Of a stretch of DNA of 64,000 nt, positions 31,742-56,087 are shown piece after piece. Source of the stretch: a virus (lineage: Duplodnaviria > Heunggongvirae > Uroviricota > Caudoviricetes); IMG/VR virus record IMGVR_UViG_3300047548_001036, positions 1 to 64,000 of that record; one strand, given 5' to 3'. The notes under the pieces were generated by a model. It was given only the letters and a program-made list of their open reading frames with translations. It ran no database searches and was not told the DNA's origin. A program made the translations under genes and the position numbers. The stretch's first letter is position 1, and each line of letters begins with the position of its first letter.

Positions 31742-31760
31742 GGTGCTCTCCTCCATGTAC

Positions 31761-37648: not shown

Positions 37649-37649
37649 T

Positions 37650-38493: not shown

Positions 38494-38717
38494 AACGTTT
38501 AGATTACGAAGTAATAGTCCCTCGAAGATCGGTGCATGAGAATGTACAAATAGATCTATGGTGTACTAAGCAATGGGGTCTGAGATGGGATCCTATTGAT
38601 AATCGAGAAGGACATTGGGCAGTATTTTGGGCAGGACCGAAAATTCGTCCAAGTTCTTTCAGATGGCGTTTTGATACACAAGAACGCGCTAACTGGTTTG
38701 CACTGAAGTGGCTATGA
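38490..38717 (+). CDS. RWS family small protein
   Basis: IDLWCTKQWGLRW ... RANWFALKWL; ATGA overlap. Confidence 0.55.
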   Translation: MKRLDYEVIVPRRSVHENVQIDLWCTKQWGLRWDPIDNREGHWAVFWAGPKIRPSSFRWRFDTQERANWFALKWL

Positions 38718-38929
38718 AATATAGAATCATAGAACTCGGACCCTGGGCAATAAAAGGCCATCCTTACGACTGTAAAATAGAATTAATTGACTACGGACTC
38801 GATACACGTGAGCAAATCGCGGATTGGTTAGAAGAATCTAAAATTCCGCACTTCACATTCGGACGAACAAGTTCGGTTATTTACTTAGAGAAAAAACACG
38901 CTACTTGGTTTGCACTACGATGGACTTGA
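38714..38929 (+). CDS. RWS family small protein
   Basis: …KKHATWFALRWT. Confidence 0.55.
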   Translation: MKYRIIELGPWAIKGHPYDCKIELIDYGLDTREQIADWLEESKIPHFTFGRTSSVIYLEKKHATWFALRWT

Positions 38930-39129
38930 CTTTACCTTTTACCGGCAATCACCGCGCCGTGTCGTATGTTCGAGAAAAATATAAGTTAAAAGACTACCAA
39001 ACTTCAGCCGAACTTTTTGAGAAAGAATTCAACTGTAAGATAAAGTGGAACTGGGGAGATTGCTATATTGAATTTAATGATGAAAAATCTTACATATGGT
39101 ATCAACTAAAATGGTCAACGTCTTCTTAA
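38920..39129 (+). CDS. RWS family small protein
   Basis: …EKSYIWYQLKWSTSS. Confidence 0.5.
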   Translation: MDLTLPFTGNHRAVSYVREKYKLKDYQTSAELFEKEFNCKIKWNWGDCYIEFNDEKSYIWYQLKWSTSS

Positions 39130-39344
39130 CCGATAAAGGCATTGCTTACCGAGATACCGAGCAGCACTTTGCTAGTATAGATGCATGGGCACAGAAATAC
39201 TGCCCAACATACGTAGGGTATCATGTGCAAGATGTTAGCGACGTTAGTTACTACTACGACCAAATTGCCTGCTATCAATTTAACGAAGAACGGTGTGCAA
39301 ACTGGTTTAAATTAAAGTGGAGCAGCAATGAGTGCCGTAGTTAG
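39111..39344 (+). CDS. RWS family small protein
   Basis: IDAWAQKYCPTY ... RCANWFKLKWSS. Confidence 0.5.
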   Translation: MVNVFLTDKGIAYRDTEQHFASIDAWAQKYCPTYVGYHVQDVSDVSYYYDQIACYQFNEERCANWFKLKWSSNECRS

Positions 39345-39525
39345 TTTAAAATACGACCCTGCTTGGGTAGCGTTAGACTGGGCAAAAAAGCACTGCCGCA
39401 GCTACATTACTAATGTGCAAGCATCTGCTATAAATTATCCGGCGGGCGTTAAAATCAACTACTATTTTGCTAGCGAACGAGATGCGTTTTTGTTTAAACT
39501 ACGGTGGAGCGATCAAGTTGTCTAA
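39328..39525 (+). CDS. RWS family small protein
   Basis: VALDWAKKHCRSY ... RDAFLFKLRWSDQVV. Confidence 0.55.
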   Translation: MSAVVSLKYDPAWVALDWAKKHCRSYITNVQASAINYPAGVKINYYFASERDAFLFKLRWSDQVV

Positions 39526-39739
39526 ACAGGATTATTGCATACACTTTGCCGAAGTGTCGCACCTTTCTATGCAAGAAAGATTTGAAGCTGCTATGTGGTG
39601 CTTAATTCGATTTGATCAAGCTACAGTAGATCTGTTTGGAACTAAACAAGTAATCGGCCGATATAGCACCGAAACTGTTTACGGTTTCTACTTTGCTAGA
39701 GAAAAAGATGTTACAATGTTTAGACTAGCATGGGGATGA
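39467..39739 (+). CDS. RWS family small protein (start uncertain)
   Basis: …KDVTMFRLAWG. Confidence 0.45.
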   Translation: MLANEMRFCLNYGGAIKLSKQDYCIHFAEVSHLSMQERFEAAMWCLIRFDQATVDLFGTKQVIGRYSTETVYGFYFAREKDVTMFRLAWG

Positions 39740-39742
39740 TAA

Positions 39743-39895
39743 ATGAACTGGCAATATAACGGAGTAGCACCGTGGACTGACATTGTAGATTGGTGTTGGT
39801 CTACGTTTGGTGCAGATAATGTTTCAGCTAAGTGGGAAACTATTCATTTTAGCCGCCCTCGAGACTACACTTTATTTTTGTTAAAGTGGGGATAA
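39743..39895 (+). CDS. RWS family small protein (50 aa)
   Basis: IVDWCWSTFGADN ... RDYTLFLLKWG. Confidence 0.5.
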   Translation: MNWQYNGVAPWTDIVDWCWSTFGADNVSAKWETIHFSRPRDYTLFLLKWG

Positions 39896-39896
39896 C

Positions 39897-40106
39897 ATGA
39901 AAACTCTTCCTAAACATCCGTACTTACAAAATATTGTTAACGAATATCATCGCGTAAGCGGTGGAACTTGGCCGGTAGGGCCTGAATACAGATATTGGCT
40001 TGCCCAGTTTGGATTTAAAGTTCCTGTACGAGAAGACTACCTAGAGTTTCCGGATGACTTTAGCGAAAAAGAACTGCTACTGTTTACTATAAGGTTCGGC
40101 GGATGA
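39897..40106 (+). CDS. RWS family small protein
   Basis: …KELLLFTIRFGG. Confidence 0.5.
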   Translation: MKTLPKHPYLQNIVNEYHRVSGGTWPVGPEYRYWLAQFGFKVPVREDYLEFPDDFSEKELLLFTIRFGG

Positions 40107-40360
40107 GACAATTAACTACACTTACAAAAACTTGGAAGGGTGTAGAGTACTATTGCGTTGATGTAGAAATGAATGACCCGGATGCAAGTAATAGCTTAAC
40201 TACTTGGATAGCAATGCAGAGGTGGTGTATAAATCTGCTAGGGCCGCAAGGAGACCCGTGGGAAGAGTCGGTTCCAAGGTGGTATTTTAACAACAGCAAG
40301 TTTTGGTTTAGAGAAGATCATAACCGGACACTGTTTATACTAAGATGGTCTCATGGTTAG
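40103..40360 (+). CDS. RWS family small protein
   Basis: WIAMQRWCINLLGP ... HNRTLFILRWSHG. Confidence 0.6.
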   Translation: MRQLTTLTKTWKGVEYYCVDVEMNDPDASNSLTTWIAMQRWCINLLGPQGDPWEESVPRWYFNNSKFWFREDHNRTLFILRWSHG

Positions 40361-40532
40361 AATATGCATACAGTGCCCTATTACTTGGGCCGACCAGCTT
40401 GCGTGGATTCATCAACGGTGTAAAAATTACCGTGATGTTACCAACTGGCGAAGTTGGTGTTTAGGCGTTCATCCTATTTACTACGAGCTCACAGAAAAAG
40501 ATGCCACTCTATTTCATCTTAGGTGGAGCTAA
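40353..40532 (+). CDS. RWS family small protein (59 aa, below ORF-track cutoff)
   Basis: my translation: MVRICIQCPITWADQLAWIHQRCKNYRDV...EKDATLFHLRWS. Confidence 0.45.
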   Translation: MVRICIQCPITWADQLAWIHQRCKNYRDVTNWRSWCLGVHPIYYELTEKDATLFHLRWS

Positions 40533-40747
40533 TGGACTACAAAGCTGTCATCGCACTTAAAACTAATAATGTTTGGGACACAGAAGCTCGTGTTAATGAG
40601 ATATGGGAGATTAAAGAATGGCTAGACGAATTAGTAAAATGGCAAAGAGGGATGTATTCTGTGCAATATTTAACAACTAGCCAACAATTACTGGTTTGGT
40701 TCAGAGAAGAACGACATGCAACGATGTGCTCCTTGAGGTGGTCATGA
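40532..40747 (+). CDS. RWS family small protein
   Basis: IKEWLDELVKWQRG ... RHATMCSLRWS; TAATG coupling. Confidence 0.55.
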   Translation: MDYKAVIALKTNNVWDTEARVNEIWEIKEWLDELVKWQRGMYSVQYLTTSQQLLVWFREERHATMCSLRWS

Positions 40748-41121
40748 GTTTAAGGATGCTATGGAAAATGAATAAAAAATCAAGCGACTGGTGGGTGCTT
40801 GACGTTATAAGTAACCGTAAGCAGTTGGTTAATATCTGGCATACAGTCTGGTGGAAATTGATGCCTGGAACGGAAATTAAAGTGCCGTGGCCACATGGAT
40901 GGACTGAACCCGTAGTGTCAGCAGACGGTAGTATTGTTCAAACAGAATCCAGTGACCCAAACGACCATTATAGGCCGTGGCTTGTTAAAAATGTAGGCCG
41001 GCAAGGATGGGACTGGCAGTGGGATCTACGCGACTACGACATCATTGATAATACATTAACTATTAAGTTTCGGCAAGGAAAATCAAAGTGGGCAACGGTT
41101 GCAGCAATTAAATGGAGTTAA
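40744..41121 (+). CDS. RWS family protein (125 aa)
   Basis: …KSKWATVAAIKWS; ATGA overlap. Confidence 0.5.
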   Translation: MSLRMLWKMNKKSSDWWVLDVISNRKQLVNIWHTVWWKLMPGTEIKVPWPHGWTEPVVSADGSIVQTESSDPNDHYRPWLVKNVGRQGWDWQWDLRDYDIIDNTLTIKFRQGKSKWATVAAIKWS

Positions 41122-43289: not shown

Positions 43290-44114
43290 ATGAAAACAAG
43301 AGTATTAGTTACAGGACACGATGGCTTTATAGGCCGCAACATGACAAGTTGGTTAGACCAACAAGGCTACCTAGTAGATGGATGGGAATGGGACCCAGAC
43401 ACATTCCCCAATGTAGAAAGCTATGATTGGGTTATACATCTAGGTGCCATTACAGATTCCACAGTGCGCGATGTTGATGCAGTTATGAGACAGAACTTTG
43501 AGTTTAGTCAGCGATTGTTCAACGAATGCAACGCACATGGCACGCATTTTCAGTATGCCAGTACAAGTAGTGTTTACGGAAATACTAAAGATTTTTCTGA
43601 AACAGCACCATGTTTTCCTCAGAGTCCGTACGCATGGAGCAAATACTTGTTCGACCGCTGGGTGTTTCAACAACCACATAACATAATGGTTCAGGGTTTC
43701 CGATATTTCAACGTCTATGGTAAATGGATGCATTTAAGAAAAGGACGAACAAACTTTATATACCGATGCCGTCAACAAGCAAAGAAGCAGGGCTATATCG
43801 AAGTTTGGGAAGGTGCAGAGCATGTGCGCAGGGACTGGACCTGGGTCGGCGACCTATGTCGCTTACATACAGATTTTATTGAATCAGTGGTGGGCAGTGG
43901 TATCTGGAACGTGGGAACGGGACTTTCCCATAGCTTTCTAGACATTGCAGAAACGATTGCAGAACAAGAAGGTGTAGAAATTCGAGAAGTGCCTGTTCCG
44001 GACGAAGAACGAGCCAAATGGAGACAAAGCACCTGTGCCAACCTTAAACATTTAAAAGAAACTGTGGGCAAACGCCCCTGGCTTAATGTTTATGAATGGT
44101 TAGAAAAAGAATAA
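43290..44114 (+). CDS. NAD-dependent epimerase/dehydratase (SDR family; ADP-heptose-6-epimerase / UDP-sugar epimerase-like)
   Basis: N-terminal Rossmann VLVTGHDGFIGRN; size 274 aa. Confidence 0.55.
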   Translation: MKTRVLVTGHDGFIGRNMTSWLDQQGYLVDGWEWDPDTFPNVESYDWVIHLGAITDSTVRDVDAVMRQNFEFSQRLFNECNAHGTHFQYASTSSVYGNTKDFSETAPCFPQSPYAWSKYLFDRWVFQQPHNIMVQGFRYFNVYGKWMHLRKGRTNFIYRCRQQAKKQGYIEVWEGAEHVRRDWTWVGDLCRLHTDFIESVVGSGIWNVGTGLSHSFLDIAETIAEQEGVEIREVPVPDEERAKWRQSTCANLKHLKETVGKRPWLNVYEWLEKE

Positions 44115-44125
44115 ATATTAATACT

Positions 44126-44374
44126 ATGCTAATACACGAATTTATTAATCAACAAGATATCGACGACTTAGACGAAAAGGCCAGTCGAGCACTATGCCTA
44201 AGTACCAAATCAAACAAATCACTGGGTGCAAGTAATTTATCCAGTTGTAAAGCACAAGGCCTACGCTCACGCGAGGGTAAAAAGAAATACAAGATAGGAA
44301 AGAAGAACATCTCAGTTGGTGGACAAAAGGTCAAGGGCGAAAAATATGGTGGCCCAATTCATGATTATGGTTGA
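44126..44374 (+). CDS. hypothetical basic protein (start uncertain)
   Basis: ORF 44096-44374. Confidence 0.3.
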   Translation: MLIHEFINQQDIDDLDEKASRALCLSTKSNKSLGASNLSSCKAQGLRSREGKKKYKIGKKNISVGGQKVKGEKYGGPIHDYG

Positions 44375-44392
44375 TCCACAAGATAGTTAAAA

Positions 44393-45349
44393 ATGAAAGC
44401 TAGAGAATTTTTAAAAGAAGCTAAATCAGCCAAGTATAACAACTTGGCTATGAAGTATGCCTTTAATGATAATGCTTTAATATTGAAGGCATTTTCTAAA
44501 GAAGGCCCGTTAGCTTTCGCCAAATTTCTAAAAGAAGATCAGAATCTTTATCCACAACATCTATTTGTACATGATGACCATCAAAACAAAGGTATTGCTA
44601 AAGCAATGTATGACTATCTAAAGAGTGAAGGTTATACCATTCATAGAAGTCATGATCAAACTAAGGCAGGTGCTGGGTTTTGGGATAATCATCGTGGTAA
44701 AGGGTCGTCAGTTTGGGAAGAAGCTGCACTAGGTGAAGCTCCATTGCCCGCGGACTGGGATCCTGCGCAATATCGGCCAGGCACCACATTCAAGGATCGC
44801 CTAGCTTATGCTTTAGAAAGAGCAAAAAAGCTAGGAACTGGATCCAGTCGAGTTGCCACCATTATTGAATATCAAGGTCGTCCTACAGTGTTAAAGATTG
44901 CAAAAAATCGAAAAGGACTGGCACAAAACTCTGTAGAAGCCAGCATATTAGAGGATTGGTATGCCAAGAAACTGGATATCCTAATCCCTCTGATTGATTA
45001 CGACGAGCAAAATCAAGACCCCACGTGGATTCACACCGAAGTAGCAAATAAAGCTACTGAAAGGCAGTTGTGCAACCTTATGAAATGCGATAACTTAAGT
45101 CAGCTGGTTAATATGTCGAGTTCTATCGCAAAAAGGAAAATGTTTCAAGATCATTTTAGATCCAAAGGCCGAAGTGAAGAGGATATTGAAATCGTCAGTG
45201 AATATGCTGACAAGTTATACGAGCTGTATACAAATTTCGATGTAGAATTAGTGGACATGATCGGCGCCCGTAATTGGGGCATCTACAATGGCAAGCCAGT
45301 TATAATCGATATTGGGTTTAATACCGATGTAATGAAAAGGTTTTATTAA
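44393..45349 (+). CDS. putative capsid-packaged internal protein: CTS-like N-terminus MKAREFLKEA, GNAT-like segment, unknown C-terminal domain
   Basis: N-terminus matches T4 IP capsid-targeting sequence pattern MK..EF(I/L).EA; QNKGIAKAMYDY resembles GNAT motif A. Confidence 0.5.
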   Translation: MKAREFLKEAKSAKYNNLAMKYAFNDNALILKAFSKEGPLAFAKFLKEDQNLYPQHLFVHDDHQNKGIAKAMYDYLKSEGYTIHRSHDQTKAGAGFWDNHRGKGSSVWEEAALGEAPLPADWDPAQYRPGTTFKDRLAYALERAKKLGTGSSRVATIIEYQGRPTVLKIAKNRKGLAQNSVEASILEDWYAKKLDILIPLIDYDEQNQDPTWIHTEVANKATERQLCNLMKCDNLSQLVNMSSSIAKRKMFQDHFRSKGRSEEDIEIVSEYADKLYELYTNFDVELVDMIGARNWGIYNGKPVIIDIGFNTDVMKRFY

Positions 45350-46207
45350 ATGAGAGCTAGAGAATTTTTAAGAGAAGCACCTAACCCTGCAGCAACTGCT
45401 ACAGCACCAGTGACACCAAAACCAGGTGCATTTAGCGTAGATGTGCCACAGGGCAGGCGAGGGGTTGAAGTTGCAGATTTACAAAAAGCTCTGATAGCAT
45501 TAGGTTATCAGCTGCCCAAGCACGGTGTTGATGGTATACGTGGTCCGGAAACTAGCGCAGCCGTAAAACAATTTCAACAAGACACCCAGTTAAACACAGA
45601 TGGAATTCCTGGACCAGAAACCATTGATAAACTTAATGATGTCTTAGCATCTAAGCCTAACATTACTGCTACTCTTAAAAAGAGTCTGCCCGCAGAAGTA
45701 AAAGCACCTGCTGCTAGTAGCTCGAACATTGATACCACACACATTCAAGATCCTACGTTTAATGGAAAGCTTAAGAAAATTGCAGATGACCTTGGAGTTA
45801 AATCTTCGGACCTGATTGCCATAATGAAACTGGAATCGGGTGTGAATCCTAAAGCAGTTAACTCTATGTCTGGTGCAACAGGACTTATACAGTTTATGCC
45901 TAAAACGGCACAGTCCCTAGGCACAACTACACAAGCACTGTATAGTATGTCTGCTGTAGACCAACTCGATTATGTCTACAAATACTTTAAAATGGTAGGT
46001 GTTAAGCCAGGTATGACCTTACAGGATTTATACATGGCAGTGTTTATGCCTGCAGCAATGGGCAAGGGCCCCGACCATGTGTTGGGGCAAAAAGATGCGC
46101 CTGGTTTTGCCGGCAAAGTGTACGCACAAAACGCAGGCCTAGACAAAAATCGGGACGGAACAATAACTGTTGCAGATGCAACTCAATCGGTATCAAAATT
46201 TGCATGA
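45350..46207 (+). CDS. peptidoglycan-binding + lytic transglycosylase (SLT-like) protein with CTS-like N-terminus MRAREFLREA
   Basis: PG_binding_1-like LQKALIALGY...DGIRGPETSAAVKQFQ; SLT motif ESGVNPKAVNSMSGATGLIQFMPKTA. Confidence 0.6.
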   Translation: MRAREFLREAPNPAATATAPVTPKPGAFSVDVPQGRRGVEVADLQKALIALGYQLPKHGVDGIRGPETSAAVKQFQQDTQLNTDGIPGPETIDKLNDVLASKPNITATLKKSLPAEVKAPAASSSNIDTTHIQDPTFNGKLKKIADDLGVKSSDLIAIMKLESGVNPKAVNSMSGATGLIQFMPKTAQSLGTTTQALYSMSAVDQLDYVYKYFKMVGVKPGMTLQDLYMAVFMPAAMGKGPDHVLGQKDAPGFAGKVYAQNAGLDKNRDGTITVADATQSVSKFA

Positions 46208-46755
46208 AACATCTTATAGGAAACTTACTTATCTCTCCTCCTAGCATTGACCATGGATTCTTTCAGAAAAGCGTTATACTGCTAACTGAAGATCACTCCG
46301 GAGGCAATGTAGGAGTCGTATTGAACAAAACTAGCAAAGTAAGTTTAAACGAGTTTGCAAAGCATAATAATGTTATATTAGATGTGCCAGGGTATGCACA
46401 TATAGGAGGACCAGTAAACCCAAAAGCGTTGACCATGATTCACACCAATGATTGGGCTTGTTCGAATACTATGCGTATCAATGATTTGTTCAGTATTAGT
46501 AGCAGCCCTGATATATTTAATTACTTGGCCAATGGATATTGTCCGGAACATTGGAGGATATTTGTTGGTTTGTGTAAATGGACTCCGGGACAGTTATCAA
46601 AAGAGGTTAATGGGTTACCTCCATATGAACATAAGTCTAGCTGGTTAACCGCAACCGCGGACTTGGATATTGTGTTCGAAACAGATGCCGATGACCAGTG
46701 GAGTGAATCCATAGAAAGATCAGGTTCTGAATTCGCTCAAAACCTCTTTGAATAA
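46204..46755 (+). CDS. YqgE/AlgH family (DUF179/UPF0301) protein
   Basis: GNLLISPPSIDHGFFQKSVILLTEDHSGGNVGVVLNK matches YqgE/AlgH N-terminal signature. Confidence 0.6.
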   Translation: MKHLIGNLLISPPSIDHGFFQKSVILLTEDHSGGNVGVVLNKTSKVSLNEFAKHNNVILDVPGYAHIGGPVNPKALTMIHTNDWACSNTMRINDLFSISSSPDIFNYLANGYCPEHWRIFVGLCKWTPGQLSKEVNGLPPYEHKSSWLTATADLDIVFETDADDQWSESIERSGSEFAQNLFE

Positions 46756-46811
46756 ATACTAATCTATCGTATAATGTAGTAGTTACAGTACTACACACGC
46801 AGAGCATTATT

Positions 46812-47327
46812 ATGAGCGATACACTTTTACTAAATTCGGATGCGCAGCCTGTCAGCTGGTTACCACTTAGCACATTGACATGGCAAGATGCCATTAAGTA
46901 CATGATTCTTGAAAAAGCTCGTGTAGTTGAATGGCATGAAAATTGGATAGTACATTCTGCCAGTTGGGAAACTCAGGTCCCGGCAGTTATGATGTTAACT
47001 GAATACATGAAACCAAAAACTGCAGTTAGATTTTCCAAGTCTAATGTGTTTTTACGAGATCAGTACACCTGCGCTTACTGCGGATCTAAACTAGAAAAGG
47101 GCGTATGCACATTAGATCATATTTTACCTAGTAGCCATGGTGGACGTACTACGTTCGAAAATTGCGTAACTGCATGTTCGCCGTGTAACGCACGAAAAGG
47201 AAACAATAAGAAGATTGTTCCCAAGTTTAAGCCGCACAAACCTGATTTTTGGGAATTGGTGCACAAACGCAAGCTGCAACCGTTTCATGTCAAACATCCA
47301 AGTTGGTTTGACTACATACAAGTATGA
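46812..47327 (+). CDS. HNH endonuclease
   Basis: CAYCGSKL...LDHILPSSHGGRTTFENCVTACSPCNARKGN. Confidence 0.7.
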   Translation: MSDTLLLNSDAQPVSWLPLSTLTWQDAIKYMILEKARVVEWHENWIVHSASWETQVPAVMMLTEYMKPKTAVRFSKSNVFLRDQYTCAYCGSKLEKGVCTLDHILPSSHGGRTTFENCVTACSPCNARKGNNKKIVPKFKPHKPDFWELVHKRKLQPFHVKHPSWFDYIQV

Positions 47328-47734
47328 AGCAATTTTTATGGAAACTGTTGGGCTTTGCTAGTCTGTGTCTGGCATACATTGGGTTGATTACTCCGGGCTT
47401 GCCTTACTCGCCGTTTATTGTATTTGCTGCCTATTGCTTTTCAAAAGGGAGCCCGCGTATGCATGCCTGGATTTACAATCACAAGGTATTTGGGCCATTT
47501 CTAACAAACTGGACCGAAAAACGAGTGTTCCCCATACGTATGAAATTCTTCATGCTGGCCATGATGACTACCAGTTTAATCATCATGTTTAGCAGCGGAG
47601 TTAAACTCATAGGTGTTATTTCTACTGCAATTTTCATGGCACTGGTTGCTATCTGGGCCTGGAGATTCCCCAGCAGTGTGACCGAACATGAACGTAGAAT
47701 TGCACAAGGTAAAAAGATCGGTTGGTTTAAATAA
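47324..47734 (+). CDS. YbaN-like inner membrane protein (DUF454)
   Basis: [50 protein letters not shown]. Confidence 0.55.
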
Positions 47735-48914
47735 TTGCTTTCAGTGCATTTATTAAATCTTCAATCATACCATCTGTATGCATAGGGGTAGGAACTAATC
47801 TTAAACGTTCAGTTCCTACATCTACTGTTGGTGAATTTATAGCCTGAACATATATGCTATACTCATTTAACAATATATCACTGAACTCCTTAGTCTTAAA
47901 CGCATCACCTATCAATATGGGAACGATATGCGTATTGCTAGGCATAAACGGCAACCCTGCTTTATCTAATAAGTACTTGAGTTTTTGGACTCTACCCTGA
48001 TGCTCTTCTCTAAGACTGTTGTGTTCTTTTAGATATCTTACAGACGCCAATGCCCCTGCACACAACACGGGACTAAGACTGGTTGTAAAAATAAACCCTG
48101 CTGCAATACTACGAATTGCATCAATAACTACAGAATCTGCAGCAATGTATCCCCCCTGAACACCAAATGCCTTACCCAAGGTGCCGTTTACAATATCAAC
48201 ACGATCTTGTAATCCTAGTTTCTCTAATTTGCCGGCGCCTGTTCCTCCATACAGTCCAACGGCGTGGACTTCGTCGATGTAAGTCATAGCCTGGTATTGA
48301 TCTGCAAGGTCGCAAATTTCACGAATCTTGCTGACATCACCGTCCATGGAATAGACGCTTTCAAACACCACACATGGTGTTTTTCCTTGCTCTCGACTAC
48401 GTCGTAAACACGATTCTAGATCATCTAAGTCATTGTGAATAAAAACTTGTTTTGCAGCCTGGCTATGTTTAATGCCTACGATTATACTGTTATGATTTTT
48501 ACTATCACTGATAAATTCGATGTTAGGGATTATTTTGGACAATGCAATCATAGTCCATTCATTGGCCACATAGGCACTGCTGAACAACAGTGCTCGATTT
48601 TTCTTGTGTAATGTAGCAAGCTCATGTTCTAATGCTACATGATAATGAGTGGTTCCAGATATATTACGTGTGCCACCACTGCCTGCACCAGTCATATCAA
48701 TCGCGGTATGCATGGCATCAAGTACAACTTTATGCTGCCCCATGCCCAAATAATCATTACTGCACCAGTTTACGATGTTCTTAATAGCGTATGGTCCGTA
48801 CCAAATTGAATTAGGAAACTTCCCACTTTCTCGCAATATGTTGTTAAAAACCCTGTATTTGCCCTGCTGTTTTAAGTCAGTGATAACATTTTGAAATATA
48901 CTTCGGTCTATCAT
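47727..48914 (-). CDS. hemA: 5-aminolevulinate synthase (PLP-dependent alpha-oxoamine synthase family)
   Basis: KYRVFNNI...[12 protein letters not shown]...[13 protein letters not shown]...ELATLHKK and PLP-lysine region TLGKAFG. Confidence 0.75.
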
Positions 48915-48964
48915 ATGTCGCTCATTATATGCTTATATTTATCTATGACGACTTTAAAACTTTG

Positions 48965-48994
48965 ATACGTAATGATAATCTAAACCTAGATTAT
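48965..48994. promoter_or_regulatory. Fur-box-like palindrome TAATGATAATCTAAACCTAGATTATCAT between divergent hemA-like and tail-fiber genes
   Basis: 9-bp perfect inverted arms GATAATCTA/TAGATTATC; first 11 nt match Fur consensus (TAATGATAATC). Confidence 0.4.
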
Positions 48995-49007
48995 CATAAA
49001 TATAGTT

Positions 49008-49571
49008 ATGGCAAAGAAAATAATTAACATCGGAAGTGCTCCTAACTCTAGAGACGGCGACACCGTTCGAACAGCATTTAATAAAATAAATCAGAACTTC
49101 GACGAGTTGTATCAACAAGTATCTGCAATAACGGGTGTTGCAGATCCTGATGCTATATCTAACTTGGACATTAAAGGGTCTGTTTATGCAGAAGACGGAA
49201 CCTTAATGATCGACGCAGCATCTGGCAAAATTTTACCTTCAGCATTACCCAATAATACACCGTCGAGTTACACGTTTAATGCTATATTTGATAGTCAAGG
49301 AAACTTGTCTGCGATTGATGGATTACCGGAAGGTTGGTCGGCTAACGTATCCGACAACTTTGTTACAATTATACATCCGTTGATGAGGCTGCCAAATACT
49401 ATCAGCTACTGGGGTCACCGAGATAATGGAGAGTTTAGATTAAGATTCCCAACACCGGGGTATCCAGCGCTGGTATTACCCTCTATGGATTATAGAATAG
49501 AATTACAATTAACTGCTGCAACAACAGGTGCAGACGAGAATCAATTTGCCGTAATAACTATAATGATTTAA
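49008..49571 (+). CDS. putative tail fiber / virion structural protein (187 aa)
   Basis: N-terminal MAKKIINIGSAPNSRDGDTVRTAFNKINQNFDELY motif resembling tail-fiber N-termini; first gene of fiber cluster. Confidence 0.45.
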   Translation: MAKKIINIGSAPNSRDGDTVRTAFNKINQNFDELYQQVSAITGVADPDAISNLDIKGSVYAEDGTLMIDAASGKILPSALPNNTPSSYTFNAIFDSQGNLSAIDGLPEGWSANVSDNFVTIIHPLMRLPNTISYWGHRDNGEFRLRFPTPGYPALVLPSMDYRIELQLTAATTGADENQFAVITIMI

Positions 49572-49572: not shown

Positions 49573-50910
49573 ATGACCCAACTTGCACCTCCGAAGATTT
49601 TAAAAATAAATGTAACTAGATTGGATCCACTCGATGCATATGGATCTGAACCGTTTGCATCTCAGCCATGGAAATTCAGAGTTAGGTTATTAGTAGAACC
49701 ACAGATACACAGTGATTTACGAACCCCTAGACCTGGAATATATAACGGATTTGATGTAGTACCTGGCAATTTTATTTCTACTCAACGATCAAAAATTTTA
49801 AAAATTGATCAAATAGAATCACAAACTGCTGACCAGCTAATTTGTATATGCTCAGATACTAATCGTATAAACTCCAGCATTGACGAAAACCAAACTGGCG
49901 AAAGTGCAATTGAAACAGGATACGGGTTACTATTTACCGCAACTAAAGGTGTTCCGGTATTATTCCCATTACCAGGTAATATACAAGGTATCAGCACCAG
50001 CGATTTAATTGGAATCATTGGTAGATTCTTCTACTCCGATGCATCTGGATTTGCAGAAGGCGTATTAGGTTACACCGGATCTCAAGGCTATAGAGGATAT
50101 ACTGGCAGTAGAGGCCCATCGGGTACCAATATTGTTGTAAAAGGAAACGTACCTACTGCAAGTGATTTGCCTCCTACTGGAAATGCAGTCAACGATTCAT
50201 ATTTTGCTGATGACACCAAAGAACTATGGATATGGAGTAGTGCTGGCAACTGGTATAGTGCGGGACGTATCGTAGGCCCAACAGGTGACGTAGGATATAC
50301 CGGATCCGCTGGATACACGGGTAGTCAGGGTATTTCTGGATACACGGGTAGCCAAGGCCTACCTGGAGATCAAGGTGGCATCGGGTTTACTGGAAGTCAG
50401 GGCTATGTAGGTAGTCGAGGTGTCGAAGGCCCCGCTGGGCCTATCGGATATGCTGGTAGCCAAGGTGAAACTGGTTACGTCGGTAGTCGAGGACTACAAG
50501 GGTTCCGTGGAGAGTTAGGATATACTGGTAGCCAAGGTCCACAAGGTGCACCGGGAACGGCTGGTGGTACAGGGGCGTCTGGTTACACAGGTAGTCAAGG
50601 TATACAAGGATTTGCAGGTCCATCAGGCTACGCAGGTAGTCGAGGGTCCTTAGGATACACGGGATCGATTGGATATACCGGTAGTACTGGGATAATGGGG
50701 TACACCGGTAGCACGGGCGGGGATGGCGCAGATGGATATACCGGTAGCCGAGGATATACCGGTAGTAATGGACCAAATGCGATTGGACAGGCGACAATTA
50801 GCCAGGTACAAGCAGAAAACGGGGCAGTTTTGGTATATTCTGCTCAAGTCAACGAGTGGGCACCAAAAGTAACGCTTGATGCTCAAATCGTAGAAGGCGG
50901 GTTTTTTTAA
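49573..50910 (+). CDS. collagen-like repeat tail fiber protein
   Basis: ~30 GYTGSxG / G-X-Y repeats (GYTGSQGYRGYTGSRGPSG...). Confidence 0.65.
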   Translation: MTQLAPPKILKINVTRLDPLDAYGSEPFASQPWKFRVRLLVEPQIHSDLRTPRPGIYNGFDVVPGNFISTQRSKILKIDQIESQTADQLICICSDTNRINSSIDENQTGESAIETGYGLLFTATKGVPVLFPLPGNIQGISTSDLIGIIGRFFYSDASGFAEGVLGYTGSQGYRGYTGSRGPSGTNIVVKGNVPTASDLPPTGNAVNDSYFADDTKELWIWSSAGNWYSAGRIVGPTGDVGYTGSAGYTGSQGISGYTGSQGLPGDQGGIGFTGSQGYVGSRGVEGPAGPIGYAGSQGETGYVGSRGLQGFRGELGYTGSQGPQGAPGTAGGTGASGYTGSQGIQGFAGPSGYAGSRGSLGYTGSIGYTGSTGIMGYTGSTGGDGADGYTGSRGYTGSNGPNAIGQATISQVQAENGAVLVYSAQVNEWAPKVTLDAQIVEGGFF

Positions 50911-50938: not shown

Positions 50939-53713
50939 ATGGCATCAGAAATTAGAATCAAACGGTCAGGTAATACAGTTGTACCAACCAGTTTAAAACC
51001 AGGAGAATTGGCGTATTCTTGGGCGAACGGGGCAGATAAACTTTATATAGGTTGGGGTACTGACCAAAATGGAAATTCAACAGATATAGTATCGATTGGT
51101 GGTAAATTTTTCACCGACATGTTGGATCATACTGCAGGTACACTCACTGCTAGTTCGGCAATCATAGTCGATTCCAACAGTAAAATTGATCAGCTATTAG
51201 TTGATAACTTAAAACTTGATGCCAATACATTAAGCAGCACTGACACCAACGGTAATATACTAATTTCTCCCGACGGTACCGGGTATGTTCAAATTGTTGG
51301 TACAAACGGGCTAGTCCTTCCTGTAGGAACTACTGCACAACAAGGTCCTGCAGTTACTGGTGCTGTTCGTTTCAACTCAACCACAAGTCAGTACGAAGGG
51401 TATAACGGTACTAATTGGGCGTCACTGGGTGGAGTTCGATCAGTTGATGGGTTAACTTACATAACTGCAGAATCTACACCTGGTGCATCAAACGACACCA
51501 TAAGTTTCTATACCGCCGACAGTGCTACTACAACCACGTTAGCAGCCACACTAACCGCAACATCGCTAGATATTAATCTTACTACTGATTCTACATCCAC
51601 TTCATCTGGTGCATTGATTGTTGACGGTGGCGCCGGAATTGCTAAGAACTTATATGTGGGTGGTGATCTAAGGGCCCTAGGGGACACTTACCTAGGTGAT
51701 TCAACAACAGATAGCCTACTAGTTACTGGAGACGTAACTGTTAGCTTGCCTGACAATACATCAATTGCACTTGATATTAAACAAGGTGACGACTCATATA
51801 TCAAGGTTGTAACTACTGATGATGCTGAGAAAGTTGTTTTTGGTACTATTACAGATGTAAACATTGCTAGCACCACAGCCGCAACAAGTACGACAACTGG
51901 CGCGTTGACAGTTGCGGGGGGTGTGGGAATTGCCGGTGCATTATATGTCGCCGGTGCAATTAGTGCTGAATCCGCAACATTCGATTCCATCAATGCTACA
52001 CCAATTGGAAACGTAACACCCGACACTGGTGCATTTACTGTTCTTAATGTTGATAATCTTCAACTCGATGATAGCACTCTTAGTTCAACTAACGTTAATG
52101 GTGACATTAACATTACGCCTAATGGAACTGGTAAGCTAGTATTAGCTAATCCTTACGTTGGTACAGACTCTTTACAAGAATATATTGAAGATAGTGTTAA
52201 TTCGTTAGTTGCAGCTGGTGAAGGCATTGATGTTACCTATGATGACGTTAACGGCACCTTAACAATTGATGCTGAAATTGCAACAACTACCAATCGAGGT
52301 GTTGCATCGTTTGCTGACGCAGATTTTAATGTAACAGACGGCGCTGTTGAATTAAAAGATACTGTTGTTAAAGGATTCACAGTTGACGCCGACGCAGTAG
52401 TTACTCCTTCCGGCCACTCTGTTAAGATTACTGGCGGAGAAGGCATTGATGTCACTGTAGACGGTGCTGTAATTACCGTTGCAGGCGAAGATGCAACCAC
52501 TACCAATAAGGGCGTTGCATCGTTTGATACTGCTAACTTTACTGTAACCAACGGTGCTGTTTCAACAAAAGACATTACATTAGGTACATCAACATTAACT
52601 AACGGCTCAACCACACTTAGTTTATCTGGACTACAATCTCTCGCTGTCGATAACTTAACTATTGATGGTAACGAAATTAGTTCTAGTAACGCTAATGGTA
52701 ACATTAGCTTAAATCCAAATGGCACTGGTACAGTTGATGTTAACGGCGCAAGAATTACAACACTTGCTACTCCAGTTGACGGGACAGATGCTGCTACTAA
52801 GGCATATGTTGACTCTGTAGCAAATGGATTAGATGTTAAACAGTCAGTTCGCGTAGCAACAACTTCCGTATTAACTGCTACATACAGCAACGGTACCAAC
52901 GGCGAAGGCGCCACATTAACAAACGCAGGATCGCAAGCGGCGCTGGTACTTGATGGAGTCAGTGTTGTTCAAGGTGACCGTGTCTTAGTTAAAGATCAAA
53001 CGACGGCGTTACAGAACGGTATTTACGTTGTCACTACTGTTGGTTCAGGAAGTACTAACTGGGTATTAACACGAGCAACTGACTTTGATAACAGCCCAGG
53101 AACAGAAGTTACTGCAGGCGTATTTACCTTCGTTGAAGAAGGTACTAGCCTACAAGACAATGGATATGTTGTTACAACAAATGGTCCAGTTGTAATTGGC
53201 ACAACAGACATCGTTTGGAATCAGTTCTCGGGTGCTGGTCAAATCGATGCAGGTGATGCGTTAACCAAGACTGGAAACAGACTAGACGTTGTCGTTGCTG
53301 CTAGTGGCGGTATCGAAATTTCTGGTGATGCTTTACAACTAAAATCAAGTGTTGCTGGAGCAGGGTTAACATACACCTCAGGCGTTATAAATGTTGTTGG
53401 TACAACAGATCGAATTACCGTTAACGCTGACTCCATTGATATTGCTAGTACATACGTAGGTCAAACCAGCATAACAACTTTGGGAACAATTACAACAGGT
53501 GTTTGGAATGGCACAACTGTAACGGTTCCATACGGCGGTACTGGAGTAACTTCGTTTACAACTAACGGCATAGTCTATGGTAATGGGTCCGGAGCACTAC
53601 AAGTTACTGCAGCAGGAACCTGGGATTCTACACATAGCGTGGGACAACTATTAAGCGTAAATAGCAGCGGAGTTCCTACATGGACTAACATCATAGATGG
53701 CGGAACATTCTAA
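50939..53713 (+). CDS. large tail fiber protein (924 aa)
   Basis: N-terminal IKRS...GELAYSWANGADKLYIG tail-fiber motif; RFNSTTSQYEGYNGTNWASLGG repeat; Thr/Gly/Ala-rich beta-rich repeats. Confidence 0.7.
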   Translation: MASEIRIKRSGNTVVPTSLKPGELAYSWANGADKLYIGWGTDQNGNSTDIVSIGGKFFTDMLDHTAGTLTASSAIIVDSNSKIDQLLVDNLKLDANTLSSTDTNGNILISPDGTGYVQIVGTNGLVLPVGTTAQQGPAVTGAVRFNSTTSQYEGYNGTNWASLGGVRSVDGLTYITAESTPGASNDTISFYTADSATTTTLAATLTATSLDINLTTDSTSTSSGALIVDGGAGIAKNLYVGGDLRALGDTYLGDSTTDSLLVTGDVTVSLPDNTSIALDIKQGDDSYIKVVTTDDAEKVVFGTITDVNIASTTAATSTTTGALTVAGGVGIAGALYVAGAISAESATFDSINATPIGNVTPDTGAFTVLNVDNLQLDDSTLSSTNVNGDINITPNGTGKLVLANPYVGTDSLQEYIEDSVNSLVAAGEGIDVTYDDVNGTLTIDAEIATTTNRGVASFADADFNVTDGAVELKDTVVKGFTVDADAVVTPSGHSVKITGGEGIDVTVDGAVITVAGEDATTTNKGVASFDTANFTVTNGAVSTKDITLGTSTLTNGSTTLSLSGLQSLAVDNLTIDGNEISSSNANGNISLNPNGTGTVDVNGARITTLATPVDGTDAATKAYVDSVANGLDVKQSVRVATTSVLTATYSNGTNGEGATLTNAGSQAALVLDGVSVVQGDRVLVKDQTTALQNGIYVVTTVGSGSTNWVLTRATDFDNSPGTEVTAGVFTFVEEGTSLQDNGYVVTTNGPVVIGTTDIVWNQFSGAGQIDAGDALTKTGNRLDVVVAASGGIEISGDALQLKSSVAGAGLTYTSGVINVVGTTDRITVNADSIDIASTYVGQTSITTLGTITTGVWNGTTVTVPYGGTGVTSFTTNGIVYGNGSGALQVTAAGTWDSTHSVGQLLSVNSSGVPTWTNIIDGGTF

Positions 53714-53720: not shown

Positions 53721-53748
53721 AAAATAAAAAAAGCGGGCAAGGCCCGCT
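53721..53748. terminator. bidirectional rho-independent terminator between convergent genes
   Basis: A7-GCGGGCAAGGCCCGC-T7. Confidence 0.8.
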
Positions 53749-53752
53749 TTTT

Positions 53753-55012
53753 TTATCTCCTGCTAAAATGATAGTCGCCGTCAGGACCATTATCGCAAAA
53801 CGGTCCTGACAGGAAATTAAATCCTAGGGATAGCACATATCTAATTACTTCATCCCTTAACGGTGCGCCTTTATTGTACTCTACCGCTTGCAACTCGAGT
53901 ATTAAATCAGTGCAATGCCTTAGACATTCTGTTGCACCCATTAAGACATCAAGTTCGGCCCCTTGTACATCCATTTTAATTAAATTTGGCATGGGCAGAC
54001 CTTTTTGTTTGACCACAGTATCAAGTGTCATGGCAGTAACAGTTCTTTTATGTTTTTCATTAAACAGCTCTTTAGCAGCCGGACTTAATTCTACGTTTTC
54101 TCTGTAATAACTGTTTCCTCCCGGATGTTCAGTATTTTGATAAAACTCTAGTGTTCTTCCATCATAGTTACTGAGCACTCCAATCGCGTAGTCAAGTCCC
54201 TTTTCCTTATATAAGGACTCGACTTCTGGCATAGCCTCAAATGCTATAAATTTAGCATCGGGCCATATCGCACTAGCTTCATTGGTCCAATGTAATACAC
54301 ATGCACCTATGTCGTAAATTACATTGGGCGTTACTTGATGACTCAAGGCTTTTAAATAATCCACATGAGTCTGAGGTAACAGGCGCCGACTGCCTAATTC
54401 CTTAAGGTGTTGTTGAACAGTGGGTGTTGGATTGTCATCAACTACAAACACGCTACTTCCATGATGCCCGCAATGTATGCTGGTATCTGCAAATATCTTA
54501 TATCCTTTTTCTTTTGCACGCAAGCAAAAATAAGTATCTTCGCTAACAGTATTTGCATGGTCTATGGCGGACTTATAAACAAACTGAGGATACCCAATAT
54601 CTCTAATCACTTGGCTTTTAACCAACACACATCCAAATCCACAGCCATCAACTTCAACCAGACCTTTTCCTTTAATACTATTATAAGATATGTTAATTCC
54701 ATTATTATAAAGTTCAAGAATGTGCTGCCCGGGTTTCCTTTGAATATACAGGCCTGAAACTACGTCTTTGTCATGTGCCAATAATTTCTTTAACGTATCG
54801 GGCTTAAATGATATGTCACTATCTACACTGAACAAATAATCATACTTTTCAGCCCAATGTGCAATTAAATTTCTAATCTGATCAACTTGATCCGAAACAA
54901 AAGGTTGGAATGTTAAATTATGTCCGGCCGGAACTTCTAAGTCATATATGCTTTTAAATGTTTCTGGTTCAACGTACTTATCAGTTGGGACTGCGATTAA
55001 AATTGTTTTCAT
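53753..55012 (-). CDS. bifunctional glycosyltransferase (DxD, GT2-like) / FkbM-family methyltransferase
   Basis: N-terminal domain with DSD; C-terminal VIYDIGACVLHW...MDVQGAELDVL (FkbM-like). Confidence 0.55.
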   Translation of the reverse strand: MKTILIAVPTDKYVEPETFKSIYDLEVPAGHNLTFQPFVSDQVDQIRNLIAHWAEKYDYLFSVDSDISFKPDTLKKLLAHDKDVVSGLYIQRKPGQHILELYNNGINISYNSIKGKGLVEVDGCGFGCVLVKSQVIRDIGYPQFVYKSAIDHANTVSEDTYFCLRAKEKGYKIFADTSIHCGHHGSSVFVVDDNPTPTVQQHLKELGSRRLLPQTHVDYLKALSHQVTPNVIYDIGACVLHWTNEASAIWPDAKFIAFEAMPEVESLYKEKGLDYAIGVLSNYDGRTLEFYQNTEHPGGNSYYRENVELSPAAKELFNEKHKRTVTAMTLDTVVKQKGLPMPNLIKMDVQGAELDVLMGATECLRHCTDLILELQAVEYNKGAPLRDEVIRYVLSLGFNFLSGPFCDNGPDGDYHFSRR

Positions 55013-55070
55013 GGTATATTTGCAATAAAAATTAACTTTTGATAAATATATTTATCAAAAGGAGATTCTA

Positions 55071-56087
55071 ATGGATTATATTCCCTATACATATCTCATA
55101 GGATGGTCAAAATTAAACAAATGGTATTACGGAGTTGAGTACGGAATTAAAAAAATTCCTTGTGCAAATCCAAAAAACTTATGGACCACATACTTTACTT
55201 CTTCGAACATAGTTTCTCACTTTCGAAAAACCCACGGAGAACCAGATATTATTCAGGTAAGAAAACTTTTTTCTAAAGGGCCTCTAGAAGAAAGGATGGA
55301 AATGTCTATAAATTGGGAGAAGAAAGTTTTATCGAAAATTAACATTGGAGATGAAAAGTGGATTAATGGAAGAATTGGGGGCAATATTTGCCCTTCTGCT
55401 AATAAAAAAATTGCTAGACTTCGATACGGAGTCGATAATGTTTTTCAAGCAGAAGAAATAAAGAAAAAAATAAAAGAAAGAAATTTAAAAAAATTTGGAG
55501 TTGAACACCCGTCATACTCGACAGTTTTATTAGACAAGAAAAAGAAAAATAATATTGAAAAATACGGAATCACTTGTAATTTGAGTTTTTCTTCTGTGAG
55601 AGAGAAAGCAAAAGAATCGCTTCGAACAGAAGAGGTTAAAAAGAAAAGAAAAGAAACTATTAAAAGTAGATACGGGGTCGAACACCTAACACAATCCAAC
55701 GACATTAAAGCGCGTGTACTTGCAACTCGTAGCATTTTATCAGAAAGACCTAATGTTAAACTTATAAAAGAATATCAAAGAGTTTTTAATATAACATTGA
55801 CTAGCGGTTGGTATCAAGGATCAGATGAAAAATTAATCTTAATACTACAAGAAATACATTCCATGTATGGAGTATACTCTTATAGTGAGTTGTCTGAAAT
55901 TGCGTTACCTAAAAAATATTCATCTTCTATAAAAGAATTACAAGAGAGACCTATTGTGAAAAAAATTAAACAATATAAAGATACATACGGTAGAAAAATT
56001 AAAATAGGTCGCTCATGGGATAGAAAATCTGAAGAGTATCTTATTGAAGTTTTAAGTATGCTGGAAAAAACGTACGGACTACTTTAA
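55071..56087 (+). CDS. GIY-YIG homing endonuclease-like protein with K-rich repeated (K/R)YGVEHP modules
   Basis: YTYLIGWSKLNKWYYGVEYG ... SHFRKTHGE ... EERMEMSINWEKK ... NGRIGG; four YGV(E/D)(H/N) repeats; very AT-rich. Confidence 0.5.
   Translation: MDYIPYTYLIGWSKLNKWYYGVEYGIKKIPCANPKNLWTTYFTSSNIVSHFRKTHGEPDIIQVRKLFSKGPLEERMEMSINWEKKVLSKINIGDEKWINGRIGGNICPSANKKIARLRYGVDNVFQAEEIKKKIKERNLKKFGVEHPSYSTVLLDKKKKNNIEKYGITCNLSFSSVREKAKESLRTEEVKKKRKETIKSRYGVEHLTQSNDIKARVLATRSILSERPNVKLIKEYQRVFNITLTSGWYQGSDEKLILILQEIHSMYGVYSYSELSEIALPKKYSSSIKELQERPIVKKIKQYKDTYGRKIKIGRSWDRKSEEYLIEVLSMLEKTYGLL

Follow-up and report, generated by a model that had tools for sequence, protein, structure and literature searches.

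Viral 5-aminolevulinate (ALA) synthases are encoded by valaS, an auxiliary metabolic gene that Wegner et al. described from phage contigs in metagenomes of aquatic origin (Nat Commun 2024; PMC11480375). A freshwater vAlaS from phage CB_2 complements an E. coli ALA auxotroph, many vAlaS proteins have lost the heme-feedback histidine and cysteine, and a single valaS is one of several arrangements described; promoters and regulation of the gene are not discussed there (PMC11480375). That phages can seize the committed step of tetrapyrrole synthesis has been established since 2024.

In phage T4, the late promoter TATAAATA precedes the start site by roughly one turn of the helix and is read by gp55, gp33 and gp45. 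Such promoters are TATAAATA-like 8-mers that occur on either strand and lack a −35 element, and the phage protein DsbA binds A/T-rich sites that overlap them (PMC2988020).

The locus analysed here combines a valaS gene with promoter-like elements of this kind. It lies in a stretch of 64 kb that was analysed as a whole and is referred to as the window, and it contains the following genes.

47324–47734, plus strand: DUF454 (YbaN-like) gene, convergent with alaS and overlapping its 3′ end by 8 nt (PF04304, 3.7e-29).
47727–48914, minus strand: valaS (hereafter alaS), 5-aminolevulinate synthase, ATG start, 395 aa, assigned by TIGR01821 and structure matches.
49008–49571, plus strand: baseplate wedge/tail-fibre connector-like gene with a T4 gp9/10 N-terminal domain (PF07880, 2e-05; phrog_677, 3.4e-10).
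49573–50910 (collagen-like) and 50939–53713 (fibre/structural PHROGs): continuation of the tail-fibre module that opens with gene 49008.

As judged from its sequence, the ORF at 47727–48914 is a C4-pathway ALA synthase (ALAS) and neither a BioF nor a KBL enzyme. In profile searches it scored 575.6 bits with TIGR01821, well above the cutoff of 338.55, and the top-scoring solved structures are the ALA synthases 7x98 and 2bwn. The JGI annotation of the exact protein also reads 5-aminolevulinate synthase, and all four hallmark motifs quoted in the original prediction, including TLGKAFG, are present. The PLP Schiff-base lysine and the glycine- and succinyl-CoA-binding residues are all conserved in an alignment with 2bwn; the catalytic residues kept are R21, N53, T82, H141, K155, S189, D214, H217, T245, K248 and R372 (window numbering). 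The corresponding list for the Rhodobacter capsulatus enzyme (2BWN) is R21, N54, T83, H142, K156, S189, D214, H217, T245, K248 and R374. KBL, BioF or another α-oxoamine synthase would have the fold and the PLP motif in common with this ORF, and the KBL and BioF models do score 312–315 bits. These scores (315.4 and 312.6 bits) nevertheless fall below the models' own cutoffs of 460 and 426.45, as do those of the SPT models below theirs; ALAS structures give 394–441 bits against at most 210 for KBL and BioF, and the ORF has the full set of R. capsulatus ALAS residues that bind succinyl-CoA and glycine. The probability of such a reassignment is negligible, and the subfamily first proposed for the ORF is upheld.

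The protein is predicted to be an active enzyme that differs from the R. capsulatus one in its response to heme. The heme ligand His342 (R. capsulatus numbering) is replaced by Lys340, and the second ligand, Cys400, is missing because the phage protein stops at residue 395. With both heme-feedback ligands absent, the phage ALAS would escape inhibition by heme. Association with hemO and pcyA/X, in a three-gene or a broken cassette, is an optional trait of the viral AlaS family. Here tblastn with published vHemO and FDBR sequences gave no significant match in the 64-kb window or in sequence flanking alaS at 160 related loci, and Pfam scans of candidate ORFs were negative. The proposed role of the gene is that a functional valaS, standing alone in the 64-kb stretch, would supply tetrapyrrole synthesis in infected cells and would not be inhibited by heme.

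The window encodes an rIIB homologue (2.7e-77) together with proteins of tail-fibre and baseplate PHROGs, the gp9/10 N-terminal domain, a collagen-like fibre and an SLT lysozyme. On the strength of rIIB, the gp9/10-like baseplate gene, the tail-fibre genes and the late-promoter pattern described below, the ALAS gene is classified as phage-borne and the phage as T4-like. A search of the window for tRNAs that might point to the host found none.

By sequence, the phage ALAS belongs to the freshwater valaS clade. It matches the vAlaS rows of the Grosse Fuchskuhle freshwater UViGs in a published alignment (PMC11480375) and shares 59% identity with a marine vAlaS. Viral and metagenomic contigs carrying proteins of 72–80% identity number in the hundreds; at 72–79% there are 306 stretches in IMG/VR and over 551 in metagenomes. 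The nearest other sequence is at most 80% identical, and no relative at 80–100% identity was found in IMG/VR, the JGI metagenomes, 185,579 species genomes or a collection of 5.8 billion proteins. The contigs L246–L248 were rejected as second contigs, being the same phage at 100% identity. The species genomes gave only five matches, all of them MAGs of discordant taxa. A protein search of 50,697 phage records returned no ALAS-type match, only KBL/BioF-type ones of at most 36% identity, several of which are mislabelled bacterial records; a near-identity DNA search with positions 46–51 kb found no match in the same records, and there is no PHROG family for ALAS. The gene had been called unusual for a phage. 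This is true of deposited and cultured phages (0 of 50,697 records, no PHROG) but not of uncultured viral contigs, among which it is common.

The divergent intergenic region between alaS and gene 49008 spans 48915–49007, exactly the 93 bp originally reported, and contains the following elements.

48924–48951, minus strand: sigma-70-like match TCGTCA-16-TATAAT (10/12 in a consensus scan).
48936–48943, minus strand: T4-type late-promoter-like box GATAAATA, 21 nt upstream of the alaS ATG.
48964–48971, plus strand: GATACGTA, probably what remains of a late box for the divergent gene, recognised by alignment with relatives.
48972–48997, no strand assigned: perfect palindrome ATGATAATCTA-AACC-TAGATTATCAT, arms of 11 bp at 48972–48982 and 48987–48997.
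48995–49002, plus strand: late-promoter-like box CATAAATA, sharing 3 nt with the palindrome and separated by 5 nt from the start codon of the gp9/10-like gene.

The conserved element upstream of alaS is, on comparative grounds, a T4-type late-promoter box of the form (N)ATAAATA. The core NATAAATA has 11 copies in the window, 10 of which fall at 43–64 kb, the structural region, and most copies are intergenic or border an intergenic stretch, upstream of a gene and facing it. All 14 early promoters of the form TGnTATAAT, by comparison, lie at 4–38 kb. The nearest relatives, L240 and L241 (79–80% identity), keep (T/A)ATAAATA at the same spacing, TATAAATA and AATAAATA respectively, each 21 nt from the alaS ATG, with diverged flanks. 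Across the clade, TAAATA stands 4–8 nt before the ATG in 76 of 84 distinct valaS loci, against 40 of 676 other genes. These observations point to late transcription of alaS. Late-promoter-type signals conserved throughout the valaS clade suggest late production of the enzyme and its escape from heme feedback, and they bear on what the enzyme is for.

The sigma-70-like match is the weaker promoter candidate, because its TATAAT is not conserved (TATTAC in L240, TTAAAA in L241) and because neither the TGn nor the ATACAC feature of the phage's early promoters is present in it. Its −10 hexamer ends 9 nt before the alaS ATG and the late box lies within its spacer; some early expression of alaS may start from it. 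On the other side of the region, GATACGTA aligns with GATAAATA (TATTTATC in alaS orientation), followed by a shared CAAAG, in L240, L241 and L243. The alignment of the window with L240 scored 69.5, compared with a shuffle mean of 51.9 ± 5.1. The interval that separates the box CATAAATA from the start codon of the gp9/10-like gene holds no Shine-Dalgarno sequence.

The palindrome is non-random as an inverted repeat. Five perfect inverted repeats with arms of at least 11 bp and loops of at most 10 nt occur in the window, against 0.1 ± 0.3 in 30 shuffles; the other long perfect repeats include two terminator hairpins and one promoter pair, and one lies inside an ORF. The 9-bp arms GATAATCTA and TAGATTATC with their AACC spacer, on which the original prediction was built, are present at 48974–48995. 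The repeat exists as described; its arms are 11 bp rather than 9, and an end at 48994 clips it slightly. Only one copy of the palindrome is present in the 64-kb window together with 6.8 kb of additional flank from the same phage, and its half-site occurs nowhere else in these ∼71 kb, which is unusual for the operator of a regulator. It overlaps the late box of gene 49008 and not that of alaS. It is absent from 108 distinct valaS upstream regions and from the relatives of 79–80% identity. In the relative L243 the corresponding site between divergent late boxes is occupied by another, different palindrome that is nearly perfect, a hint that a role for such an element recurs there. Two sequence matches are coincidences: GATAATCTA-N4-TAGATTATC has eight matches in IMG/VR, all coding (...GDNLFLDYP...) and in unrelated low-GC contigs, and the 8-mer CTAAACCT shared with the hairpin at 31108–31138 is attributable to chance, 31% of shuffles giving at least three matches. 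That hairpin is an ordinary terminator. The best full-length relative of the gp9/10-like gene has 42% identity, and other relatives match it over just the N-terminal 35–40 residues and lie inside operons; they are too distant to trace the palindrome alongside the tail-fibre operon.

The palindrome had been proposed to be a Fur operator, at which host Fur-Fe2+ would repress alaS, and perhaps the tail-fibre operon too, so tying heme-precursor synthesis to iron. Host iron regulators govern some phage-borne genes, as in Stx1 phages, whose stx1 promoter carries a Fur box (PMC5552940), and both iron and heme regulate bacterial ALA synthesis (PMC11480375). Like a Fur box (GATAATGATAATCATTATC; TGATAAT-N-ATTATCA), the element is an AT-rich inverted repeat, its outer 7-mers TGATAAT and ATTATCA equal the half-sites of the 7-1-7 form, and TAATGATAATC is an exact 11-mer of the consensus. 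The identity to the consensus is real, but it is within chance, since 29.5% of shuffled windows contain one. A gap of 10 nt, where a Fur box has 1, separates the half-sites, and the best 7-1-7 match in the region reaches 10/14 and lies off the palindrome. Each arm holds about two GATAAT-like hexamers, against an operator criterion of at least three contiguous ones. The match to the 19-mer is 13/19, against a classical consensus that may not apply to the host; 15% of shuffles of the 93-bp region reach this score, and the window has 45 sites of at least 13/19 (21 in shuffles), the best of them (15/19) inside a gene. Nor does the site lie over either candidate alaS promoter: the centre of the repeat is ∼55–68 bp upstream of the inferred alaS starts rather than over −35/−10, and the repeat is set off from the late box by 28 nt and from the −35-like hexamer by 20 nt. 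In the valaS upstream regions of 100 distinct relatives, the highest Fur scores are 9–14/19 (mode 11), and the nearest relatives, at 79–80%, have no such repeat. Consensus scans for DtxR/IdeR, the Irr ICE, PerR, Zur and RirA yielded nothing convincing; DtxR gave the best of these matches (12/18, p ∼0.04 before correction for seven motifs), which is not centred on the palindrome. The sequence therefore does not support a Fur site, Fur control of alaS is very improbable, and the story of an iron-sensing phage heme gene should not be propagated.

A by-product of recombination would account for the palindrome without any function. The tail-fibre module would have joined the alaS module recently, and the repeat would have arisen where they meet, for example by template switching or through an inverted duplication. 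This agrees with the asymmetry of the locus. On its far side from the palindrome, alaS keeps its gene neighbours in many relatives (DUF454 in 71, HNH in 68, AlgH in 46 and an epimerase in 30 of 160 loci), the DUF454 homologues in the fetched flanks being up to 80% identical and, in the loci inspected, convergent and directly downstream of alaS; the upstream neighbour of alaS varies. In addition, alignable sequence runs through the decayed late box GATACGTA into the alaS-proximal arm and then ends, and the repeat is lineage-specific and single-copy. Perfect 11-bp arms, on the other hand, suggest either a very recent origin or upkeep by selection, the other long perfect repeats of the window include the two terminator hairpins and the promoter pair (one repeat in an ORF), and the near-perfect palindrome of L243 hints at a role that recurs. 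We consider a functionless origin somewhat unlikely, though a serious contender. Action as an RNA hairpin, either as a translational operator in the 5′-UTR of gene 49008 or as a terminator or insulator of read-through, is quite improbable. The element does fold (−11.2 kcal/mol, z = −3.4 on the plus strand; −10.8 kcal/mol, z = −2.9 on the minus strand) and ends 10 nt before the ATG of a gene without a Shine-Dalgarno sequence. Both late boxes, however, point outward, so that the full hairpin would be in neither transcript; the intergenic region has no good plus-strand promoter upstream of it, a T-run after it is absent on both strands, and it does not appear in the terminator scan list.

Our preferred reading, which we hold to be probable as a whole, is that alaS is functional and most likely has a late T4-type promoter, and that the palindrome is not a Fur box and, if functional, is an operator for a dimeric protein. 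Transcription of alaS would be late, most likely from GATAAATA 21 nt before the ATG, rather than set by host iron control. The 26-bp palindrome lies between two divergent late boxes, and if it has a function it would be bound by a dimeric protein; our best guess is an operator whose binding protein is probably phage-encoded, host Fur being the less likely candidate. The operator would act first on the plus-strand late promoter, and alaS could be affected only from an upstream position. The placement of the palindrome fits better with an effect on the divergent tail-fibre operon than with control of alaS. A bolder version is unlikely in full and is offered tentatively. Late valaS mRNAs would be leaderless or nearly so throughout the freshwater viral clade, a dedicated mode of expression for a metabolic gene, as argued from the late box 4–8 nt before the ATG in 76 of 84 lineages (against 6% of neighbouring genes) and from the lack of a Shine-Dalgarno sequence; the present lineage would have acquired a 21-nt leader and a private 26-bp operator, at which a putative dimeric regulator couples the alaS and baseplate promoters.

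In comparison with known systems, the palindrome resembles a T4 DsbA site in that an AT-rich candidate protein-binding site overlaps a late box; DsbA sites are not known to be 26-bp perfect palindromes. The late boxes themselves are like those of T4 in being 8-bp (N)ATAAATA elements upstream of late or structural genes, on either strand and without a −35 element, and differ in beginning with G, C or A more often than with T. With the bacterial AlaS/HemA of Alphaproteobacteria (R. capsulatus 2BWN; 7X98) the phage protein is colinear over its full length and has identical catalytic residues and PLP lysine, while it carries Lys for His342 and lacks the C-terminal region of Cys400. Solved bacterial ALA synthases score 416–441 bits against it, compared with 700–723 bits (75–80% identity) for the non-identical environmental matches listed, and unlike bacterial alaS genes the phage gene sits among structural genes. 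It is closest to the valaS genes described by Wegner et al. (PMC11480375), belonging to the same enzyme family, having lost the heme-feedback His and Cys and occurring as a single valaS. The window departs from that set in having hemO and pcyA absent from its 64 kb and in its divergence, contributing one further lineage, at most 80% identical to any other and carried by a T4-like phage.

The gene under study, alaS, is separated from a divergent gene by 93 bp (48915–49007), and the region contains the following features:

47324–47734, plus strand: DUF454 (YbaN-like membrane protein) gene, convergent with alaS and overlapping its 3′ end
47727–48914, minus strand: alaS ORF, 395 aa, ATG start
48943–48936, minus strand: GATAAATA, candidate alaS late box (T4-type late-promoter-like 8-mer), 21 nt before the ATG
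48951–48924, minus strand: TCGTCA-16-TATAAT, candidate sigma-70-like alaS promoter
48972–48982 and 48987–48997: ATGATAATCTA and TAGATTATCAT, palindrome with perfect 11-bp arms and an AACC spacer
48995–49002: CATAAATA, late box, 5 nt ahead of the gp9/10-like start codon
49008, plus strand: start of a baseplate gene with a gp9/10 N-terminal domain, divergent from alaS

The AlaS protein matches the NCBIfam model for 5-aminolevulinate synthase (ALAS; TIGR01821) at 575.6 bits (cutoff, 338.55), and the KBL, BioF and serine palmitoyltransferase models each remain under their own cutoffs. The Pfam match is limited to the generic class I/II aminotransferase fold. Compared with solved structures, the protein scores 394–441 bits against ALAS (7x98, 2bwn and human ALAS2) and at most 210 bits against KBL and BioF. 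The original prediction of an ALAS is thus borne out by the model and structure scores, the best homology clearly not being to BioF or KBL; its ORF was also recovered as described, at 395 aa and with all four quoted motifs. Alignment to R. capsulatus ALAS shows that the residues we take to bind PLP, glycine and succinyl-CoA are all kept (R21, N53, T82, H141, K155, S189, D214, H217, T245, K248, and R372, window numbering). Neither of the two heme-feedback ligands is conserved: His342 is replaced by Lys340, and Cys400 is absent, the protein stopping at residue 395. Judged from its sequence, assignment of the ORF to ALAS, an already known class, is correct.

The gene had been described as unusual for a phage. 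This holds for 50,697 deposited phage records, which contain no ALAS (the best tblastn matches are KBL/BioF-type, at most 36% identical), and PHROGs has no family for the protein. However, viral alaS (valaS) is a published class, found in marine and freshwater phage contigs either singly or with hemO and pcyA/X (Wegner et al., 2024, PMC11480375), and 306 stretches of the clade are present in IMG/VR, the best 80 of which are 73–78% identical to the window protein. The missing heme-feedback residues of many viral proteins (vAlaS) have been pointed out, and a freshwater vAlaS complemented an E. coli ALA auxotroph (PMC11480375). In the alignment from that study, the window protein is a close match to the Grosse Fuchskuhle freshwater UViG rows; one marine vAlaS shares 59% identity with it. 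Metagenomes yielded more than 551 stretches of the clade (best 80, 72–79% identity). The protein collection holds thousands of 90% clusters, including the exact window protein under the JGI annotation 5-aminolevulinate synthase; the second-best match is 80% identical. Only five of 185,579 species genomes have a valaS-clade match (66–68% identity), all of them MAGs of unrelated phyla (L235–L239, labeled Alphaproteobacteria, Flavobacteriales, Neomarinimicrobiota, Vibrio, and Polynucleobacter). Because the MAG taxonomy is discordant, these matches suggest phage contigs mis-binned into bacterial MAGs. The window adds a divergent valaS member in a T4-like phage.

Many of 160 related loci keep the gene order downstream of alaS, and the upstream neighbor is variable. 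On the downstream side (window 43290–47327 and 47324–47734), homologues near alaS in these loci include DUF454 (71 loci), HNH (68), AlgH-like DUF179 (46), nucleotide-sugar epimerase (30), and SLT lysozyme (22) genes. Neither the window nor the flanks of the 160 loci yielded a hemO or FDBR gene. A terminator-like hairpin with a T-run is located at 48573–48594 (plus strand), inside the alaS coding region and antisense to it. The hairpin could stop read-through from the upstream plus-strand HNH/DUF454 genes or may instead be due to chance, as three terminator-like hits were found in the region versus 1.9 expected.

Profile matches, including PHROGs, show that the window carries T4-like phage genes. 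These encode an rIIB homologue (phrog_609, 2.7e-77), a collagen-like fibre protein, a 924-aa fibre or structural protein, further fibre and baseplate proteins, an SLT lysozyme, and glycosyltransferases. The left end (1–6000) has a G+C content of 0.46–0.55, versus 0.34–0.48 in the remainder, and contains a 763-aa ORF, about 15 kb from the rIIB homologue, that shows a weak HATPase_c match and may be rIIA-like. At 35911–41121, about 19 small ORFs (59–144 aa) are arranged in tandem, tightly head to tail; most share a C-terminal motif such as ...(E/D)(R/K)DATLF.L(R/K)WS and BLASTP detects paralogy among several. They constitute a putative diversifying small-protein family.

The window has two promoter classes that are clearly apart in position. 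Fourteen extended −10 promoters, TG(C/T)TATAAT, lie at 4–38 kb (4184–37751), all on the plus strand; downstream of most come ATACAC...CAAACAA and a strong GGAG Shine-Dalgarno, and some have TTGACT at −35. This set is a predicted early-promoter family restricted to the left 38 kb. The second class comprises 11 (N)ATAAATA boxes, 10 of which are at 43–64 kb, where most sit within an intergenic stretch or at its edge and point to the downstream gene. The boxes fit the definition of the T4 late promoter, in which an 8-bp TATA box on either strand precedes the start site by about one helical turn and a −35 element is lacking (PMC2988020).

For alaS, comparison with the nearest relatives favors the late box. 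In two of them (L240 and L241), (T/A)ATAAATA is placed exactly 21 nt before the alaS ATG, as in the window, with TATTAC and TTAAAA, respectively, in place of the sigma-70-like TATAAT; the window–L240 intergenic alignment is modestly significant (69.5 vs 51.9 ± 5.1 for shuffles). The region just before the alaS start was surveyed clade-wide (loci L002–L081 and L155–L245). In 76 of 84 distinct valaS loci TAAATA occurs 4–8 nt ahead of the ATG, compared with 40 of 676 other genes, and a Shine-Dalgarno-like motif precedes 2/84 valaS genes, compared with 348/691 other genes. At 71 of 79 loci there is a divergent upstream neighbor, mostly 30–50 nt off, with its own box back to back (paired consensus, ATATTTA-N3-5-TAAATA). 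We infer that valaS belongs to the late class across the whole clade; the pattern suggests late mRNAs that are leaderless or near-leaderless. This clade-wide arrangement of a late box with no Shine-Dalgarno is a small new observation.

The palindrome in the intergenic region is real, although its arms had been predicted too short, at 9 bp. The window contains five perfect inverted repeats whose arms measure at least 11 bp and whose loop does not exceed 10 nt, versus 0.1 in shuffled sequence; the other four are:

31108–31138, minus strand: terminator hairpin, 12-bp arms (14 base pairs folded) followed by TTTTT, after gene 31160–31810
53724–53756: terminator hairpin ATAAAAAAAGCGGGC-AAG-GCCCGCTTTTTTTAT, between convergent genes, with a bidirectional form
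55036–55061: back-to-back promoter pair CTTTTGATAAATATATTTATCAAAAG, perfect palindrome with 13-bp arms in the 58-bp divergent region between an FkbM-methyltransferase gene (53753–55012, minus strand) and a DUF7487 gene (55071–56087, plus strand)
59552–59575: in-ORF repeat

The 55036–55061 palindrome is made of two GATAAATA late-type boxes, one per strand, and looks like a compact bidirectional late promoter. The half-site of the palindrome at 48972–48997 does not recur across the window plus 6.8 kb of extra flank of the same phage; the palindrome is a genuine single-copy feature, of a kind not expected by chance. It fills the space between two divergent late boxes and overlaps the CATAAATA box by 3 nt. 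Directly alaS-proximal to it, GATACGTA (48964–48971) can be aligned with the divergent GATAAATA box of the relatives and the shared CAAAG after it; it resembles a degenerate promoter, a remnant from the joining of another structural module at this site.

The original prediction read the palindrome as a Fur box. TAATGATAATC is indeed an exact 11-mer of the Fur consensus GATAATGATAATCATTATC, but an exact 11-mer also occurs in about 30% of shuffled windows. The 19-mer score is only 13/19 against the classical Fur box, which may not be relevant for the host; 15% of shuffles of the same 93 bp also reach 13/19, and the window has 45 sites of at least 13/19 (21 in shuffles), several better ones being inside genes. 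Under the 7-1-7 model of the Fur box, a single base separates the half-sites TGATAAT and ATTATCA, and a Fur dimer needs close half-site spacing or at least three contiguous hexamers. In the palindrome these half-sites are ten bases apart, and the best 7-1-7 match in the region (10/14) is off the palindrome. The palindrome also lies 20–28 nt further upstream than the candidate alaS promoters, its center being ∼55–68 bp from the inferred start sites, which argues against Fur repression of alaS. A similar repeat is present in none of 108 distinct valaS upstream regions. The nearest relatives (L240/L242, L241, and L243; 79–80% identity), which have a comparable intergenic length, lack the repeat, as does L012, the only relative with the same gp9/10-like divergent neighbor. 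The best Fur match upstream of valaS is 9–14/19 (mode 11) in 100 distinct regions, and scans of the window region for other iron or heme regulator motifs were unconvincing. Score, spacing, position, and conservation are all against a Fur site, which we consider the least probable reading, and a very improbable one. A role in RNA is scarcely more probable: neither late transcript would hold the whole hairpin, and the palindrome has no terminator features.

The protein collection contains no relative of the AlaS protein above 80% identity besides the exact protein, so from sequence the readings of the palindrome can only be ranked by probability. A neutral by-product of recombination is a distinctly weaker candidate than an operator bound by a dimeric protein that the phage itself probably encodes; the operator reading ranks first and, taken on its own, falls slightly short of an even chance. 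The 80%-identical valaS locus L243 has an unrelated near-perfect palindrome, CAAACTAAAAATTTTAAGTTTG, at its positions 1450–1471, between its divergent late boxes; since this is the equivalent place, lineage-specific palindromes may recur at this position. A protein bound at the candidate operator would act first on the CATAAATA promoter of the gp9/10-like gene. A precedent is T4 DsbA, a phage-encoded protein whose A/T-rich binding sites overlap late promoters (PMC2988020), just as the palindrome overlaps a late box.
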